The notes under the pieces were generated by a model, which saw only the letters and a list, made by a program, of their open reading frames with translations, had not been told where the DNA came from and did no database searches. The translations under genes were made by a program, and so were the position numbers. DNA of 13,089 nucleotides, taken from IMG/VR virus record IMGVR_UViG_2531839006_000011, positions 1 to 13,089 of that record; one strand, written 5' to 3'. This DNA comes from a virus. Its lineage: Duplodnaviria; Heunggongvirae; Uroviricota; Caudoviricetes. Positions 7,883 to 13,089 of this stretch are shown one piece after another (positions within the stretch are counted from its first letter, which is position 1; each line of letters starts with the position of its first letter).

Positions 7883-8127
7883 AGATGAAAGAGCTGGTTC
7901 CCGGTCTGCTGAGCTGTCCCGGGGTACCGCCAGCCTGCCAGCGGAAGGCGGTGGACCTCGTTAACCGGTTTCGTCGCGGGGAGAGGAATTACCATGAACT
8001 GAAGGAAAAGGGATTCGGGTATATCAAGATTAATGTTGGTCCGGACTGGCGGTTACTGAGCAGGAACCGGGGACAAACCTGGGCGCTGTTGAGTCACGAG
8101 CGATACAACAATATGAGACTGAGGTAG
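7879..8127 (+). CDS. Hypothetical small protein (82 aa) with RelE/ParE-like C-terminal signature
   Basis: C-terminus WRLLSRNRGQTWALLSHERYNNM fits the RelE/ParE pattern of two beta strands ending in a His/Arg-x-Arg-x-Tyr region. The family call is by-eye inference only. Confidence 0.55.
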   Translation: MKMKELVPGLLSCPGVPPACQRKAVDLVNRFRRGERNYHELKEKGFGYIKINVGPDWRLLSRNRGQTWALLSHERYNNMRLR

Positions 8128-8133
8128 AGCAAA

Positions 8134-8310
8134 ATGACTGATTTTGGTTCAACTAAATATAACGCCAGTTTTGAAGAATGGCATGAAGTGTTAATGGACT
8201 ATGCCGGGTTACGTGGTGGAAGTGCCGCCGATGCCGAAGCATGGCGCGATGACTATGAAGCTGGAAAAACGCCTGTCGAAGCATATTGCGATGAGTGGGG
8301 TGATGAATGA
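8134..8310 (+). CDS. Small highly acidic hypothetical protein (58 aa)
   Basis: ATG 8134 with GAGG about 9 nt upstream; 15 of 58 residues are D/E against 5 K/R/H; its TGA (8308-8310) overlaps the next ATG (8307-8309). Confidence 0.5.
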   Translation: MTDFGSTKYNASFEEWHEVLMDYAGLRGGSAADAEAWRDDYEAGKTPVEAYCDEWGDE

Positions 8311-8519
8311 GCAAAATTGACTATCAGGAGCTGCGTGAGGCGGCAGAAAAGGCAATGCATGACGACTGGGGATTTGACACGGACCTTTTCTATGAGCTGG
8401 TAGAACCATCGATTGTGCTGGCTCTGCTGGATGAATGCGAGACGCTGGCAACTGAGAATGCGAAGCTGAAGACAGCACACCCTCAACTGTTCGGGAAAGC
8501 TGAAGGAGCGACAAAATGA
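8307..8519 (+). CDS. Ea22-like small protein (70 aa)
   Basis: MSKIDYQELREAAEKA...SIVLALLDECETLATENAKLK resembles the LREAAEKA / LALLDE motifs of lambdoid-prophage Ea22-like proteins (recollection). ATGA overlap with the next gene at 8516-8519. Confidence 0.6.
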   Translation: MSKIDYQELREAAEKAMHDDWGFDTDLFYELVEPSIVLALLDECETLATENAKLKTAHPQLFGKAEGATK

Positions 8520-8737
8520 GCAAGCCAACCGACGAAGAAATAGTTCGGGTGTTGGAAGAACACGGGCGCTGTATGACTTACGTCGTGACCAACTGGCTTA
8601 GGGATAAATATCGCACACTCAAAACGGCATACGTTTTGCGTCGTCTAAAGAAACTGGAGTTCGACGGGAAAGTAAAGCGCGTTAACAGTTCTTATATAAG
8701 ACAAATTTGCTGGGAGGCAACCAGTGAGCGAGATTGA
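8516..8737 (+). CDS. Small basic protein, possible winged-helix DNA-binding protein (73 aa)
   Basis: C-terminal YVLRRLKKLEFDGKVKRV resembles a wHTH recognition helix plus wing. ATG at 8516 overlaps the upstream stop. Confidence 0.5.
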   Translation: MSKPTDEEIVRVLEEHGRCMTYVVTNWLRDKYRTLKTAYVLRRLKKLEFDGKVKRVNSSYIRQICWEATSERD

Positions 8738-9323
8738 TTATCAGGCGCTACGGGAACGTTATTCACCTAAGCCAGTACCTGAATGCTCTGTTTGTGGCGA
8801 GGAAATGTCAATACAGCGCATATCTGGAGCACATGTTGTTTATGCCTGTTCCGGTGAGGGTGATGACGGATATTTTAAGATAGGGCGTACTTTTGCAGAC
8901 GAACATTATGAAGAATCACGCGTAACAGTAGTTGATGATAGTGATCCCGATGTGATTGCACTACTGGACGAACTGGAGGCAGCAAAATCAAAACTCAACG
9001 AGCAGCGTGAATATTACGAGGGAGTAATCGCGGATGGGAGTAAGCGTATTGCAGAACTGGAAGCACGGGAAATAAAACCAGCCAAAGGCGAAGTTCTTGT
9101 CGTTGTATCTGGTTTTACTGGTTGCGGAAAAAGCGCCATTGCCGGGGAAATAGAAATCGCGATGAAGGCTATTGGTGTGCCGGTTCTATGGACTAATGGC
9201 GATGCGGAAAAGCGCATGACAGGAGCTGACTGGCTGACAGCGATTGAGATGTACAAACCAAATGTGCGCATCGTGGAAGTTAATGTGCCACGCGTCGCTG
9301 GCATTCGCACCAAAGGAGAGTGA
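8724..9323 (+). CDS. Ea22-like N-terminus / Cys-cluster / coiled-coil / C-terminal P-loop protein (199 aa, GTG start)
   Basis: GTG at 8724 with GGGAGG 6 nt upstream. N-terminus MSEIDYQALRE parallels the 8307 ORF; Cys cluster CSVCGEEM...YACSGEGDDGY; VIALLDELEAAKSKL; Walker A-like SGFTGCGKSA. Confidence 0.55.
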   Translation: MSEIDYQALRERYSPKPVPECSVCGEEMSIQRISGAHVVYACSGEGDDGYFKIGRTFADEHYEESRVTVVDDSDPDVIALLDELEAAKSKLNEQREYYEGVIADGSKRIAELEAREIKPAKGEVLVVVSGFTGCGKSAIAGEIEIAMKAIGVPVLWTNGDAEKRMTGADWLTAIEMYKPNVRIVEVNVPRVAGIRTKGE

Positions 9324-9324
9324 T

Positions 9325-9840
9325 ATGGCGTTAACACACCGCGAACTCTGTCAGATTGCGTACAAGTTCCTTAAGCGCAACGGGTTCAAGGTTTGTTTTC
9401 ATGACCGCTTTATAGCTGTAACCAGTACCGGAGAACAGCCAGATGCTATGGGATTCAGAAATTCAGCATCATGCCTGATAGAGGCGAAATGTTCTCGTGC
9501 TGACTTGTTGGCAGATAGAAAAAAGCGTTTTCGTAAAAATCCATCTCTTGGAATGGGCGACTGGCGATTCTTTATTAGTGAGCCGGGAATTATTTCAATT
9601 GAGGATTTACCACCTGGCTGGGGATTACTTCACGTTGTTAACGGAAGAGTACGGAAAGTACATGGGTGGCCCAGGGGTAATTGCTGTTGGGGTAATCCTG
9701 ACGATAAGCCATTTACTGGAAATAAGCAGGTTGAATGCGATTACATGTTATCTGCATTAAGGCGCATGGAGTTGAGAGGGCACCTTAATGAAATATATGA
9801 CGGTGTAATTGTTAATAAGAAAGAAGGAAACGCAGCATGA
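9325..9840 (+). CDS. PD-(D/E)xK nuclease-like protein, MmcB-like (171 aa)
   Basis: AAAGGAG SD before ATG 9325. Motifs GEQPDAMGF ... LIEAKCSRADLLADRKKRF fit a D...E-x-K nuclease core as in the MmcB/DUF1052 family (recollection). Confidence 0.6.
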   Translation: MALTHRELCQIAYKFLKRNGFKVCFHDRFIAVTSTGEQPDAMGFRNSASCLIEAKCSRADLLADRKKRFRKNPSLGMGDWRFFISEPGIISIEDLPPGWGLLHVVNGRVRKVHGWPRGNCCWGNPDDKPFTGNKQVECDYMLSALRRMELRGHLNEIYDGVIVNKKEGNAA

Positions 9841-9977
9841 TCACTATTACCAAAGAGCGACTGCTGACAATCCAGCAGTGGCGCGAAACATACGGACCTG
9901 GTAGCAACGTTGTATTGCCAGCAGAAGAAGCGGAAGAACTGGCACGAATTGCACTGGCATTGCTGGAAGCAGAACCG
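9837..9977 (+). repeat. About 141-bp direct repeat, copy 1 (5' module of a paralogous gene pair)
   Basis: Hand alignment to 10668-10808 gives 9 mismatches in 141 bp; similarity ends abruptly after the module. Confidence 0.8.
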
Positions 9978-10235
9978 CTGGTGCCCGTCATGTATAAAGG
10001 AATGAAACTGTTAACAAAAGAGGGGCTTGAGCTTATTCGTGACGGTATTGCTGAGGCTACAGGACTGGAAGCAATGTGTATGGCTGAGGCTTTGCTGTCT
10101 GGGGCGTCAGTGCCGTCAGTGCCAGAAGAAATGTATTGGCAGGATGCGCCTGTTGGAGGCAGTAGCAAAGCAGCTGCATACGCGACAGGCTGGAATGCCT
10201 GTCGCGCCGCAATGCTTCAGGGAAAAGGAAAGTGA
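9837..10235 (+). CDS. Hypothetical protein, paralog A of a shared N-terminal module (132 aa)
   Basis: ATGA overlap with the upstream gene; the first 47 aa are near-identical to the ORF at 10668 and the C-terminus is unrelated. Confidence 0.6.
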   Translation: MITITKERLLTIQQWRETYGPGSNVVLPAEEAEELARIALALLEAEPLVPVMYKGMKLLTKEGLELIRDGIAEATGLEAMCMAEALLSGASVPSVPEEMYWQDAPVGGSSKAAAYATGWNACRAAMLQGKGK

Positions 10236-10236
10236 T

Positions 10237-10458
10237 ATGGCTAACTCGTTACTTGAAACCTGCAACAACTGGCAGATTCAGAGGGCGGAGATTTTATCTC
10301 GCAATCCAGATATGGCAATGACAATTGATAATCTGGACACGCTAATTGAACGGACCGTGCGTTCTGCAATTGATATAGCACATCGAGTGGATTGGGATTT
10401 CAGAGAAGCGGAGCGGCTTGCTAAAGAGCAGGAGAAAGCAGCGGGTAAAGGAGACTGA
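10237..10458 (+). CDS. Hypothetical small protein (73 aa)
   Basis: ATG 10237 follows the upstream TGA (10233-10235) with AAGGA upstream; its stop abuts the next ATG at 10460. The track's longer 10027 start overlaps the upstream gene and was not used. Confidence 0.5.
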   Translation: MANSLLETCNNWQIQRAEILSRNPDMAMTIDNLDTLIERTVRSAIDIAHRVDWDFREAERLAKEQEKAAGKGD

Positions 10459-10459
10459 T

Positions 10460-10657
10460 ATGGATAAAAACACCACTGCTTACTGGAATCTGTCACTTGA
10501 TACCGAATGCCCAAAATGCGGTCACAATTTCGATCTGCTTTGTGATCCAGATTTCTGGGAATTTTCTGGAGCAAAACAGGCATGTGAAGAAATAAAAGGT
10601 TACGAAACATGCTGTCCAGAATGTAACCATGAATTTAAAACAGATTTTGTGTATTGA
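10460..10657 (+). CDS. Small zinc-ribbon-like protein (65 aa)
   Basis: Two Cys pairs, CPKCGHNF and CCPECNHEF, spaced as in a zinc ribbon; ATG at 10460. Confidence 0.55.
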   Translation: MDKNTTAYWNLSLDTECPKCGHNFDLLCDPDFWEFSGAKQACEEIKGYETCCPECNHEFKTDFVY

Positions 10658-10667
10658 GGCATAACAA

Positions 10668-10808
10668 ATGACCACTATAACCAAAGAGCGACTGCTGACA
10701 ATCAAGCAGTGGCGCGAAACATACGGACCGGGTAGCAACGTTGTACTGCCAGCAGAAGAAGCGGAAGAACTGGCACGGATTGTACTGGCATCGCTGGAAG
10801 CGGAACCG
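10668..10808 (+). repeat. About 141-bp direct repeat, copy 2
   Basis: See copy 1 at 9837-9977. Confidence 0.8.
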
Positions 10809-11081
10809 GTGGCGTGGATGTGTGATGACGAAGATGGTCGTGAATATAACGGTCATAACGAGTTTTCTTATGGAAGACGCGGGATTCCCCTTTACGCCGT
10901 CCCGCCAGCGCCGAATGGATTGGTTAAAGCCGTAGCTTTCTATGAGCAGGTTAAACGTGAAAATCCGCCAGTTGAAACGGGAGCATGGAAAGACGCCGTT
11001 GACTGGGTGCTTAAACAAGCTTGTCAGGCTGTAAACACTGGCATCAATGAAAGAAGAACAATTGAAGAAAATGATGATTGA
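10668..11081 (+). CDS. Hypothetical protein, paralog B of the shared N-terminal module (137 aa)
   Basis: ATG 10668 with GAGG about 8 nt upstream; N-terminus MTTITKERLLTIKQWRETYGPGSNVVLPAEEAEELARIVLASLEAEP differs at 4 of 47 positions from the 9837 ORF. Confidence 0.6.
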   Translation: MTTITKERLLTIKQWRETYGPGSNVVLPAEEAEELARIVLASLEAEPVAWMCDDEDGREYNGHNEFSYGRRGIPLYAVPPAPNGLVKAVAFYEQVKRENPPVETGAWKDAVDWVLKQACQAVNTGINERRTIEENDD

Positions 11082-11129
11082 GCCGGAAGCAGCAAAAAAG
11101 CGCATTGCAGAACTGGAGGAGCGCCGGTC

Positions 11130-11345
11130 ATGAGAAAAATCAGTGGAATGTTGAACCTGGAGAAGGCCAGGATGCAGTTGCGTGTTTTGTTATCAGGACC
11201 GGTTCCTGCGATCACTCCGATGTCGCATGCCGTGGCAATTAAAGTTGTGCCTGATGCTCCGGATGCGAGTGAGCGGAGGGTGGCTGAACTGGAACAGGCC
11301 TGCGCTGCCGCGGGCATTCGTATCAAAGGGGAACAAGTGAAATGA
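11130..11345 (+). CDS. Hypothetical small protein (71 aa)
   Basis: GGAGGA about 9 nt upstream of ATG 11130; its stop overlaps the next ATG (ATGA at 11342-11345). Confidence 0.45.
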   Translation: MRKISGMLNLEKARMQLRVLLSGPVPAITPMSHAVAIKVVPDAPDASERRVAELEQACAAAGIRIKGEQVK

Positions 11346-11563
11346 AACTGAAGATGCAGGCAATGGACGGCCCGGTGATTATAGAGAGTAGTGATGTGAC
11401 ACAGTTTTACCCTGACCATGAAAGTGGCGGGGAACTCACCGCTGTTGAGTACCTTGCTGACGGGGGAAGAATCACCGCGAGGGTGAGGCACTCTTTTTAT
11501 CAGGTTGCTGCGGCACTTGCCGGGGCATGGCGTGCGGATGATGCATCAAAAAGCGGTGGGTGA
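11342..11563 (+). CDS. Hypothetical small protein (73 aa)
   Basis: ATGA-coupled to the upstream ORF; last gene of the small-ORF train. Confidence 0.45.
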   Translation: MKLKMQAMDGPVIIESSDVTQFYPDHESGGELTAVEYLADGGRITARVRHSFYQVAAALAGAWRADDASKSGG

Positions 11564-11823
11564 GGACTGTGCCGGAATGATTGTCTGTTCCGAAGCTGCT
11601 GAACCGCGACATAAATTTTTTATGTTGCGGTGAAGCAGCCGGCAAACGAAGAGCGTCAGCGTATCAACAGTTAAGGAAAATATCTTCTGAAGCCGGACGC
11701 GACAGTCAGTCCGGTGGTGCTCGTGTGGTGAAGTGTTTAGCCTGCATCTTTGACAGGGTTCAGTTATAAGCATTTCGGAAACCGTTCCCCGGCGCAGTCT
11801 GCCGGGATTTAAGGAGTTTATTT
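11564..11823 (+). promoter_or_regulatory. Structured 260-bp intergenic region upstream of the Rep-like gene (inverted repeats, iteron-related 11-mer, strong SD)
   Basis: Inverted repeats CCGCGACATAAA / TTTATGTTGCGG (11604-11630), CCGGAC / GTCCGG (11693-11714) and CCCGGC / GCCGGG (11788-11806); TTCGGAAACCG at 11774-11784 recurs inside the downstream gene (12644-12654); AAGGAG before ATG 11824. The track ORF here (11581-11769) is rich in rare codons. Confidence 0.4.
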
Positions 11824-13089
11824 ATGGCGCTACCTGCAGAAAGCCTTATTGCGCATACGCTCAGAAAAATGAAGGCCAGCATGGCAGAGAAAGCCAGTCG
11901 TGAGGACGGGAGGATACGCAGTGGGCTGTTGTTTACCGGCAATGTTCACGATTCGTATCCCCGCAGGCTGTTGCTGGATACGCGCCTTTCTCCCCTTGAT
12001 AAAACTGCGTGGATGATGATTCGTCTGCATGCCCTGAATAATGAGGGCGCAGTATTTCCGACGTACGATGAACTGCAGTTACAACTGGCATCTCCCGGGT
12101 GCGGGAAGGCGTCCCGTGAAACAGTGAGCCGGGTGCTGACAATGCTGCGGCTTACGGGCTGGCTGAGTCTGTGTAAGCGGGTCAGGGATGAAAAAGGGCG
12201 GGTCCGGGGGAATATTTACGCCCTGCATGATGAGCCACTGACCTGCTGTGATGCAGAAAAGTTTGACCCACGATACCTGGATATGGTTCTGGATACTGTG
12301 AGCAGGAGCCGGAACAAGACAATCCGGCACACAGCCAGTGAAGTGCTCAGTGATATCAAAAATGAGCCCGGTATGCGGCATTACCACAGCCATATCACTC
12401 TGTTTGAATCGCGTATGGGGGCAGCACAGACACCTGGTCAGCTGGCGGCGCGTCAGCGGGTGAACCCGATGGTGAATGAAAACACAGGCAGAGAGAGTGG
12501 TTCGGATTCCGTACATACCCCTGCACCTGTCGTGCAGGTAACCGAACTCAGTGCTCCGTTAACCGAACTCAGTGAAAAACAGGAAATGAGCCCACTCAGT
12601 TCGGATTCCGTACCGCCTGAAAAATCAGTAACTTATCACTCGGTTCGGAAACCGAACAATTACGTACGTAATATCACACACAGTGTGATTAAAAATACGT
12701 ACGTATTGCCTGAGTCGGTGAAATCGCAAATCAGCACAGAAGACACGGACATGCTGACAAAACAACTGCAGGCGTTGCCGGAAGAACTGGCAGGTAGTGT
12801 GCTGAGCAGCCTGTCACAGATGCTCAGCAAAAACACGCTCCAGAATCCGGTTGGCTGGATGCTGGCTGTGATGAAACGTGCGCGTGAGGGAAGTTTTAAT
12901 ACGCCGGATATGTCCGTGCATGAATCCCGGTCGCCAGCCCGTGCACCATATCAGCCTGTGTACAACCGTGATGAACGTGAACGTCGTCGCAGGAAAGTGG
13001 CGTCACCTGAAACGGTGAGCAACATTGTCGCAGAATTCCGTGCCAGCCTGAAACGTGCAAATGCTGCCCGTCTGGCGGCGCGTGTTTGA
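11824..13089 (+). CDS. Winged-helix DNA-binding protein, candidate replication initiator (421 aa, complete; TGA at 13087-13089)
   Basis: N-terminal region LSPLDKTAWMMIRLHA...GKASRETVSRVLTMLRLTGWLS...GRVRGNIYALHDEP looks like a wHTH initiator/regulator domain; a central low-complexity linker is encoded by iteron-like DNA repeats; basic C-terminus. The replication role is inferred. Confidence 0.7.
   Translation: MALPAESLIAHTLRKMKASMAEKASREDGRIRSGLLFTGNVHDSYPRRLLLDTRLSPLDKTAWMMIRLHALNNEGAVFPTYDELQLQLASPGCGKASRETVSRVLTMLRLTGWLSLCKRVRDEKGRVRGNIYALHDEPLTCCDAEKFDPRYLDMVLDTVSRSRNKTIRHTASEVLSDIKNEPGMRHYHSHITLFESRMGAAQTPGQLAARQRVNPMVNENTGRESGSDSVHTPAPVVQVTELSAPLTELSEKQEMSPLSSDSVPPEKSVTYHSVRKPNNYVRNITHSVIKNTYVLPESVKSQISTEDTDMLTKQLQALPEELAGSVLSSLSQMLSKNTLQNPVGWMLAVMKRAREGSFNTPDMSVHESRSPARAPYQPVYNRDERERRRRKVASPETVSNIVAEFRASLKRANAARLAARV
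12496..12706. repeat. Iteron-like repeat cluster inside the Rep-like CDS (candidate origin or operator array)
   Basis: Exact 15-mer GTTCGGATTCCGTAC twice (12500-12514, 12599-12613); exact 13-mer ACCGAACTCAGTG twice (12541-12553, 12562-12574); GGTTCGG-AA-ACCGAAC at 12642-12657; TACGTACGTA twice (12661-12670, 12696-12705) flanking ATCACAC-aca-GTGTGAT (12673-12689). Confidence 0.5.

Follow-up and report, generated by a model that had tools for sequence, protein, structure and literature searches.

The question raised by window IMGVR_UViG_2531839006_000011 (an IMG/VR record of Caudoviricetes, analyzed over its whole length, positions 1 to 13,089) is whether a small protein of the Ead/Ea22 family encoded there carries a genuine phosphate- or nucleotide-binding site. 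An earlier note, made from the letters alone, had described the open reading frames (ORFs) at 8307 and 8724, here ORF A and ORF B, as a paralogous Ea22-like pair, the longer one extended with a Cys cluster and a Walker A-like motif. From the viewpoint of annotation, ORF A and ORF B are ordinary genes that already bear a name. Lambdoid phages express Ea22 proteins among the first of their products, and few of their proteins are so poorly understood; the function presumably resides in the variable C-terminal domains, and a C-terminal domain class with a recognizable ligand-binding motif represents a concrete handle on it. The C-terminal domain of ORF B belongs to an undescribed, widespread class of Ea22 C-terminal domains, which possesses an intact Walker A motif and is far too small for a conventional nucleoside triphosphatase (NTPase). 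The overall reading that we favor, as somewhat probable, is that both genes encode Ea22-family accessory proteins and that ORF B presents, as an oligomer, a mini P-loop module binding phosphate or nucleotide. The features on which this reading draws are as follows, where AF2 stands for AlphaFold2.

8307-8519, + strand: ORF A, short Ead/Ea22-family protein of 70 aa with an ATG start
8307-8441, + strand: lambda-type N-terminal region of ORF A including the leader (residues 1-45), from identity to lambda Ea22
8724-9323, + strand: ORF B, modular Ead/Ea22-family protein of 199 aa with a GTG start
8724-8756, + strand: family leader of ORF B, MSEIDYQALRE (11 residues), common to ORF A, lambda Ea22 and many variants that differ downstream
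8757-8951, + strand: Cys module of ORF B (residues 12-76), with a CxxC knuckle, a beta-hairpin and a lone third Cys, C42, from AF2 and homologue comparison
8952-9062, + strand: ALLDELE junction and coiled-coil segment AKSKLNEQREYYEGVIADGSKRIAELE of ORF B (residues 77-113), from an AF2 helix and likeness to lambda
9081-9296, + strand: C-terminal mini P-loop domain of ORF B (residues 120-191), in the predicted order strand, P-loop, helix, strand, helix, strand, from homologues and AF2
9111-9134, + strand: Walker A motif GFTGCGKS (residues 130-137), read from the sequence
9276-9278, + strand: E185, candidate Walker-B-like acidic residue closing the last predicted strand (VRIVE), proposed from its invariance
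9297-9323, + strand: family C-terminal tail AGIRTKGE of ORF B with the stop codon, the same tail as in lambda Ea22 and in variants with unrelated C-terminal domains

Membership of both proteins in the Ea22 family, together with their mosaic architecture, is clear. Against the Pfam model PF13935 (Ead_Ea22), which has a gathering score of 27 bits, ORF A reaches 40.7 bits (E = 4.6e-10) and ORF B 92.9 bits (E = 3.5e-26), both above the threshold, in agreement with the family named in the earlier note. The common start MS(K/E)IDYQ(E/A)LRE reported there is also confirmed, as the leaders MSKIDYQELRE (ORF A) and M(GTG)SEIDYQALRE (ORF B) are identical at 9 of 11 positions (pairwise BLASTP E = 4e-4). 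A second common segment is present in both proteins, as VLALLDECE (residues 37-45) in ORF A and VIALLDELE (residues 77-85) in ORF B, although its pattern had been given one residue out of register and correctly reads V(L/I)ALLDE(C/L)E. The 33-nt leader DNAs of the two genes show 8 differences, 4 of them synonymous third-position changes, and therefore do not derive from a recent duplication; it is the peptide itself that is conserved. Accordingly, the supposed paralogous pair consists of mosaic family variants joined by recombination, and not of the products of a local duplication.

The two variants differ in completeness. ORF A is an N-terminal-only short form, of which residues 1-45 share 75.6% identity with residues 1-45 of lambda Ea22; past residue 45 it departs from lambda Ea22 into a unique 25-aa tail and lacks the coiled-coil core and any C-terminal domain. 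ORF B is the full modular form, comprising the leader, an optional Cys module, the family coiled coil and the C-terminal mini P-loop domain. Its residues 75-114 are modeled by AF2 as one long helix with a predicted local distance difference test (pLDDT) score of about 89-90, and the coiled-coil part is near-identical to those of lambda Ea22 (over about 27 residues) and of the Ea22 protein of Escherichia phage APC_JM3.2.

Lambda Ea22 is built from an N-terminal region followed by a coiled coil and then a C-terminal domain, is tetrameric and acts in favor of lysogeny, and in Shiga-toxin (Stx) phages the Ea22 C-terminal domains are replaced by unrelated ones (PMC10834534). ORF B resembles lambda Ea22 (C-terminal domain PDB 8DSX) in its PF13935 match, its leader, its plan of N-region, coiled coil and swappable C-terminal domain, the segment AKSKLNEQREYYEGVI(A/S)DGSKRIA(E/K)LE and the tail AGIR(T/I)KGE. 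However, a Cys module occupies the N-region slot of ORF B, where only the 11-residue leader is held in common, and the Walker A mini-domain replaces the beta-beta-alpha-beta-beta-alpha dimer domain of lambda. Homology between these two C-terminal domains was considered and rejected (hhalign probability 0.5%). The Stx-phage Ea22 variants V1, V2 (with DUF551) and V3 follow the same mosaic principle, with a common N-terminal and coiled-coil part and alternative C-terminal domains (PMC10834534). None of the 23 phage records with the mini-domain is among the Stx phages in Table 1 of that paper, and the mini-domain therefore represents a further C-terminal domain class that is not described there. 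Close phage counterparts are the Ea22 protein of APC_JM3.2, phiV10 gp48 and D6 orf100, which carry a mini P-loop domain 94-97% identical to that of ORF B on an Ea22 scaffold. Their N-terminal modules are unlike that of ORF B: phiV10 and D6 have other types, whereas APC_JM3.2 has a lambda-like N-region and coiled coil, with only the C-terminal domain exchanged for the mini P-loop domain.

The Ea22-type tail recurs at other gene ends. A 71-aa ORF at 11130-11345 ends in …AAAGIRIKGEQVK, the tail of Ea22 proteins with unrelated C-terminal domains, and a neighbor protein in a Yersinia phage (L004 1703-2149) ends in …AAGGKVEGE. Mosaic accessory genes may thus recombine at this tail, as a conserved joint at the gene end.

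The extent and spread of the mini-domain were defined by a sensitive search with residues 112-199 as query against 1.84 billion representatives. Homologues were recovered in 435 representative clusters, 337 of them with E <= 1e-10, and the matched stretch always spans about 70-75 residues. Among 146 listed proteins, the domain is C-terminal in 127, N-terminal in 14 and internal in 5, and its occurrence at protein termini delimits it to about 70 residues. One homologue of 110 aa (P0163) is made up of a short helix and the domain and nothing more. In gp37 of Burkholderia phage BcepC6B the domain is N-terminal (59% identity), in Burkholderia and Ralstonia jumbo phages it is internal (39% identity), and it is also found in a prophage early region adjoining RusA. 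The domain is joined to at least five other N-terminal parts, in phiV10, D6, a Flyfo siphovirus, Yersinia phage fHe-Yen8-01 and short forms of 110-150 aa, while the Cys module of ORF B is paired elsewhere with other C-terminal domains (P0055, and P0095 with DUF551). As for the complete proteins, the exact 70-aa and 199-aa sequences each occur on at least 1000 public contigs under the name 'ead/Ea22-like family protein', and the homologues of ORF B form more than 7000 clusters, many of them matching end to end in Escherichia coli, Salmonella, Klebsiella and Citrobacter. The domain combination, which had been called unusual, is thus a common one, with the identical protein on all these contigs and the same architecture across four genera.

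Conservation within the domain is equally pronounced. In a diverse alignment of 23 sequences (33-81% identity), G130, G133, G135, K136, S137, A138, G141, G151, W156, E162, V181 and E185 are invariant, together with V126 and V128 of the first strand. The pattern GxxGxGKS is kept in 381 of the 384 domain copies fetched and does not vary among homologues with as little as 33% identity, and all of 383 copies have the Glu at the end of the VRIVE strand. When the window is compared with the Flyfo phage copy, the proportion of synonymous differences (pS) is 0.83, which is saturated, and the nonsynonymous proportion (pN) 0.06; the ratio of nonsynonymous to synonymous substitution rates (dN/dS) is 0.12-0.13 against phiV10 and D6. 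These values indicate strong purifying selection on the domain. Its spread, its invariance and the low pN therefore mark the domain as a real and autonomous unit under strong constraint, and its status as a selected module of P-loop type is well supported. It has no Pfam family and falls in PHROGs of unknown function; a profile search with the domain alignment returned only close relatives plus two proteins named 'ATP-binding protein', and a search for homologues that started from the divergent copy in a Burkholderia jumbo phage found nothing.

Does this module form a nucleotide-binding fold? The Walker A-like motif GFTGCGKS itself stands: residues G130-S137 follow the hydrophobic strand VLVVV, and a helix begins at K136 in both AF2 models. 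The earlier note had allowed for the motif lying in an unstructured region, whereas it occupies a strand-to-helix site for which the domain-only model (mean pLDDT 81.5) has a pLDDT of 90-94 across the P-loop stretch. In the full-length model, built on a 20-sequence alignment, the mean pLDDT is 65 and the C-terminal domain is of low confidence. Weak matches to the P-loop clan are consistent across the alignment, 22 of its 23 members hitting AAA_16 and 20 of 23 APS_kinase, and every one of the leading families belongs to the P-loop NTPases. When the PDB was searched by profile, the matches were Walker A regions belonging to ABC and UvrA proteins, together with 6c2u and 9jix (E = 0.008-0.01); with the single sequence as query, the PDB yielded nothing but a spurious match to GAPDH.

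Several observations weigh against the nucleotide-binding reading. No curated cut-off of a P-loop family is reached or even approached, the family matches cover the first ~40 residues only, and the P-loop matches in the PDB are likewise not significant. Foldseek found no significant structural match, and its PDB search with the full-length model gave nothing below E = 0.24. The confident domain-only model has no strands by DSSP, strands being present only in the low-confidence full-length model, and the fold is therefore not established. At ~70 residues and three strands, the domain is, to our knowledge, well below any characterized natural Walker NTPase. Helix alpha-1 bears an invariant acidic GEIEI face, which is atypical for NTPases and could have a protein-binding role instead. 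The literature searched contains no paper that joins Ea22 with Walker A, P-loop or ATP-binding.

A complete nucleotide-binding fold, for which the earlier note had proposed to examine the C-terminal ~80 aa, is accordingly not supported: three predicted strands in ~70 residues do not make up a complete three-layer alpha/beta core, which has at least five, and the P-loop hits stay below threshold. VRIVE185 is invariant and, as a Walker B residue, would lie beside the P-loop strand, where no sheet is confidently modeled; the strand-free domain-only model hints that a sheet might form only between subunits. A conserved neighbor gene supplying the missing half of the fold was sought in six elements and rejected, since the upstream and downstream neighbors are unrelated. 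The domain is also not a member of the kinase-GTPase division of P-loop NTPases (adenylyl-sulfate kinase, dethiobiotin synthetase, SRP54/FtsY); it has only its ~70 residues and three predicted strands, lacks lid, base-recognition and substrate elements, and reaches none of the family thresholds. It is a truncated P-loop-type module, neither a complete NTPase nor a kinase. Nucleotide binding by the domain is a tentative proposal that we rate as close to evenly balanced. The more specific view, that it is a natural minimal Walker unit, with Walker A and a Walker-B-like Glu, which binds and perhaps hydrolyses nucleoside triphosphate (NTP) only when the coiled coil assembles it, appears rather unlikely.

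For the mini P-loop module presented by an oligomer, the following mechanism can be proposed. The coiled coil would oligomerize ORF B, as has been shown for the tetrameric lambda Ea22 and as we infer here, and would thereby gather two to four copies of the mini-domain. The Walker A loop (K136/S137) and Glu185 of each copy could then bind a phosphate-bearing ligand, most likely Mg-NTP, at a site that would probably be completed across the subunit interface, since the remainder of an NTPase core is missing from the domain. The state of the ligand might gate contact with a factor of the host or of the element, in which case ORF B, by analogy with lambda Ea22 and its bias towards lysogeny, would presumably be an accessory protein that modulates how the element develops early on. 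If the mini-domain does bind nucleotide as an oligomer, it bears on the minimum size of a functional Walker site. As the natural minimal Walker unit considered above, it would surpass in smallness every other natural P-loop unit for nucleotide binding by a wide margin and would be the living equivalent of the engineered 'ancestral P-loop prototypes', carried as a portable module by accessory proteins of temperate phages, of phage-plasmids and of integrative and conjugative elements (ICEs) from Enterobacteria to Burkholderia.

An alternative scenario is that the domain serves protein-protein interaction or dimerization, a role already proposed for other C-terminal domains of Ea22, and has kept a P-loop-like sequence in which the GKS turn and the GEIEI face are structural or bind a partner, with no nucleotide involved. 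The C-terminal regions of lambda and P27 Ea22 are dimerization modules whose surfaces are acidic and for which no ligand is known (PMC10834534), which accords with this scenario, as do the small size of the domain relative to a complete NTPase core, the absence of a significant structural match to NTPases, and an equal degree of invariance outside the Walker motifs (E142, E144, W156, E162, K163, D169, W170, Y177 and P179). However, the Walker A positions (G, G, G, K, S) and the strand-end Glu are near-absolute from Enterobacteria to Burkholderia phages, as ligand binding predicts, and the domain core is near neutral (isoelectric point, pI, 6.4) rather than strongly acidic. We consider this scenario unlikely.

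The domain may otherwise be a generalist binder of phospho-ligands (polyphosphate, single-stranded DNA (ssDNA) or RNA) that acts only as an oligomer. It would then be no specific NTP switch but the equivalent, in nature, of the engineered beta-(P-loop)-alpha prototypes. Those prototypes (PDB 6C2U/6C2V, 'phosphate-loop protein') and the de novo ATPase PL2x4_2 (PDB 9JIX) are minimal beta-(P-loop)-alpha contexts that depend on oligomerization. Engineered P-loop polypeptides of 40 residues bind NTPs, polyphosphate and ssDNA and act only as oligomers, indicating that minimal contexts can work (bioRxiv 10.1101/2020.07.30.228619). Both 6c2u and 9jix are among the best PDB profile matches of the mini-domain, and 9jix aligns with it over 74 residues including the strand-end Glu, weakly (E about 0.01). 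In addition, recombination or replication genes are found beside the domain in several phages: it follows an exonuclease and DUF2815 in BcepC6B, lies beside RusA in a prophage and follows a RecBCD inhibitor in APC_JM3.2. However, the PDB matches rest mostly on the Walker A stretch at these E-values, the acidity of the whole protein (pI 4.8) disfavors nucleic acid binding, and no neighboring gene is conserved. The three structures are laboratory constructs; the mini-domain is natural and widely spread. A generalist binder is, on balance, distinctly improbable.

A further possibility is that the two genes are decayed phage fragments without function, ORF A being what is left of a truncated ea22 gene and ORF B two partial genes fused in frame. 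In its favor, the NCBI Prokaryotic Genome Annotation Pipeline (PGAP) splits ORF B of E. coli genome NZ_CP032265 into two incomplete pseudogene pieces and marks several neighbors as frameshifted or incomplete, ORF A lacks the coiled coil and the C-terminal domain, and a 1-bp deletion frameshifts the upstream DUF2857 gene in the window. Against it, ORF B is uninterrupted, translationally coupled and provided with a Shine-Dalgarno sequence; the identical 199-aa and 70-aa proteins are annotated as intact elsewhere among their many contigs; the full ORF B architecture is retained from genus to genus; purifying selection acts strongly on the domain; and mosaicism is the normal state of the Ea22 family (PMC10834534). 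Decay is thus very improbable. The weakest reading, a small kinase-like effector or toxin as the earlier note had in part suggested, draws on weak matches to adenylyl-sulfate kinase, gluconokinase and PPK2 models and on one metagenome homologue (P0087) named 'Polyphosphate:AMP phosphotransferase', and is hardly credible given that these matches lie 10- to 50-fold under the curated bit-score cut-offs and cover the Walker A strand-loop-helix only, that 70 residues contain no lid or substrate-binding region and leave no room for one, and that PADLOC gives no match.

The Cys cluster of ORF B is present as noted earlier, and comprises three Cys only (C21, C24 and C42), not four. Residues 1-40 are modeled by AF2 at a pLDDT of 80-86 with strands at 29-34 and 37-41, and the CxxC knuckle and hairpin would fit a zinc-ribbon pattern. 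The weak point of this likeness, which also tells against the favored reading of ORF B, is that the second knuckle is reduced to C42 alone; zinc binding by ORF B is uncertain because its module has only three Cys. A fourth Cys is present in 28 of 60 homologues, within …GCHY…, and absent in the other 32, including ORF B; the window type has a loop 3 residues shorter and a Tyr in that place. The Cys module is an optional part within the Ea22 family.

Between ORF A and ORF B lies one further gene:

8516-8737, + strand: gene between ORF A and ORF B encoding a possibly winged-helix protein of 73 aa

This protein corresponds to phrog_9799 (E = 1.9e-43, unknown function), and its winged-helix Pfam matches are all below threshold (E 0.04-0.15). 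The ATG start of ORF A overlaps the stop of the gene upstream (ATGA), the 73-aa ORF overlaps ORF A in an ATGA and ORF B by 14 nt, and a Shine-Dalgarno sequence, GGGAGG at 8712-8717, is located 6 nt 5' of the GTG start of ORF B. As the 73-aa ORF overlaps both of the others, the three genes are translationally coupled. No promoter-like site was found on the + strand across 7200-11900, which together with the overlapping starts and stops fits expression as an operon; a single + strand terminator-like match at 10546-10559 is within chance expectation.

The 1.8 kb around ORF A and ORF B is 100% identical in the chromosomes of many E. coli strains. For the identical locus in NZ_CP032265, PGAP annotates ParA, an SPI-7-type DnaB, ParB, DUF2786, DUF2857 and a ParE-like toxin, followed by a run of small genes including ORF A and ORF B, and beyond this run an STY4528-family replication protein, topoisomerase III, TraD and many ICE marker proteins. 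This gene order therefore identifies the window as the left part of an SPI-7/ICE-type element. Unlike lambda ea22, which belongs to the early-left exo-xis region in lambdoid phages, ORF A and ORF B sit in an ICE, flanked by the ParB/DUF2786/DUF2857/ParE-like genes on one side and by the STY4528-family replication gene on the other. The guanine-plus-cytosine (GC) content is 0.45-0.49 across ~8100-11100, versus 0.53-0.56 in the flanking ICE genes, and this block encodes only small proteins matching PHROG phage families. Given its low GC content and PHROG matches, the block looks like a phage-derived, exo-xis-like accessory cassette inserted in the replication/partition operon of an ICE in E. coli, an example of exo-xis-type phage accessory genes that travel inside a conjugative island. 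Membership in a defense system was rejected for ten cassette proteins, none of which has a PADLOC match.

Other genes of the cassette have features of their own. ORF B and the ORFs at 9325-9840, 9837-10235 and 10668-11081 are labeled 'incomplete' or 'frameshifted' pseudogenes by PGAP in NZ_CP032265, yet are uninterrupted in the window; these labels probably arise from mosaic genes confusing the annotation pipeline, and ORF B is intact in many other records. The product of the ORF at 9325-9840, 171 aa long, matches phrog_9263 and phrog_631 over its full length (E down to 8e-123) and, weakly, a 'DNA repair protein' PHROG; its motif D…CLIEAKC is one that we take to resemble the PD-(D/E)xK nuclease signature. 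The ORFs at 9837-10235 and 10668-11081 form a second pair, with a common N-terminus M(I/T)TITKERLLTI(Q/K)QWRETYGPGSNVVLPAEEAEELARI and divergent sequences thereafter, and are probably what the earlier reader had counted as the first pair; both proteins match phrog_60, phrog_660 and phrog_3323 (unknown function). The 65-aa protein at 10460-10657 has no family match, contains two CxxC pairs (CPKC … CPEC) and looks like a stand-alone zinc ribbon.

Upstream of the cassette, one G is missing at ~7673 relative to the near-identical ICE of strain AR_0089, and the DUF2857 gene is frameshifted, a 157-aa ORF at 7305-7778 and a remnant at 7748-7882 replacing one 193-aa gene; this represents either a real inactivation or a sequencing error. 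The protein encoded at 7879-8127 has a ParE-like toxin domain (PF24732, E = 1.7e-19); the start of its gene overlaps the end of the DUF2857 gene, and no recognizable antitoxin gene adjoins it. ARAGORN, and Rfam at its gathering threshold, detected no tRNA and no Rfam family anywhere in the window; PGAP places a 78-nt tRNA-Ser at ~1460-1537 on the - strand, between the integrase gene and parA, in the matching genome, which these programs do not find. Of the 47 differences between the window and AR_0089, 45 fall within positions 1-1451, the integrase end (~97% identity), and two remain from 1452 onwards, a pattern that suggests a recombination boundary near the attachment/tRNA region.

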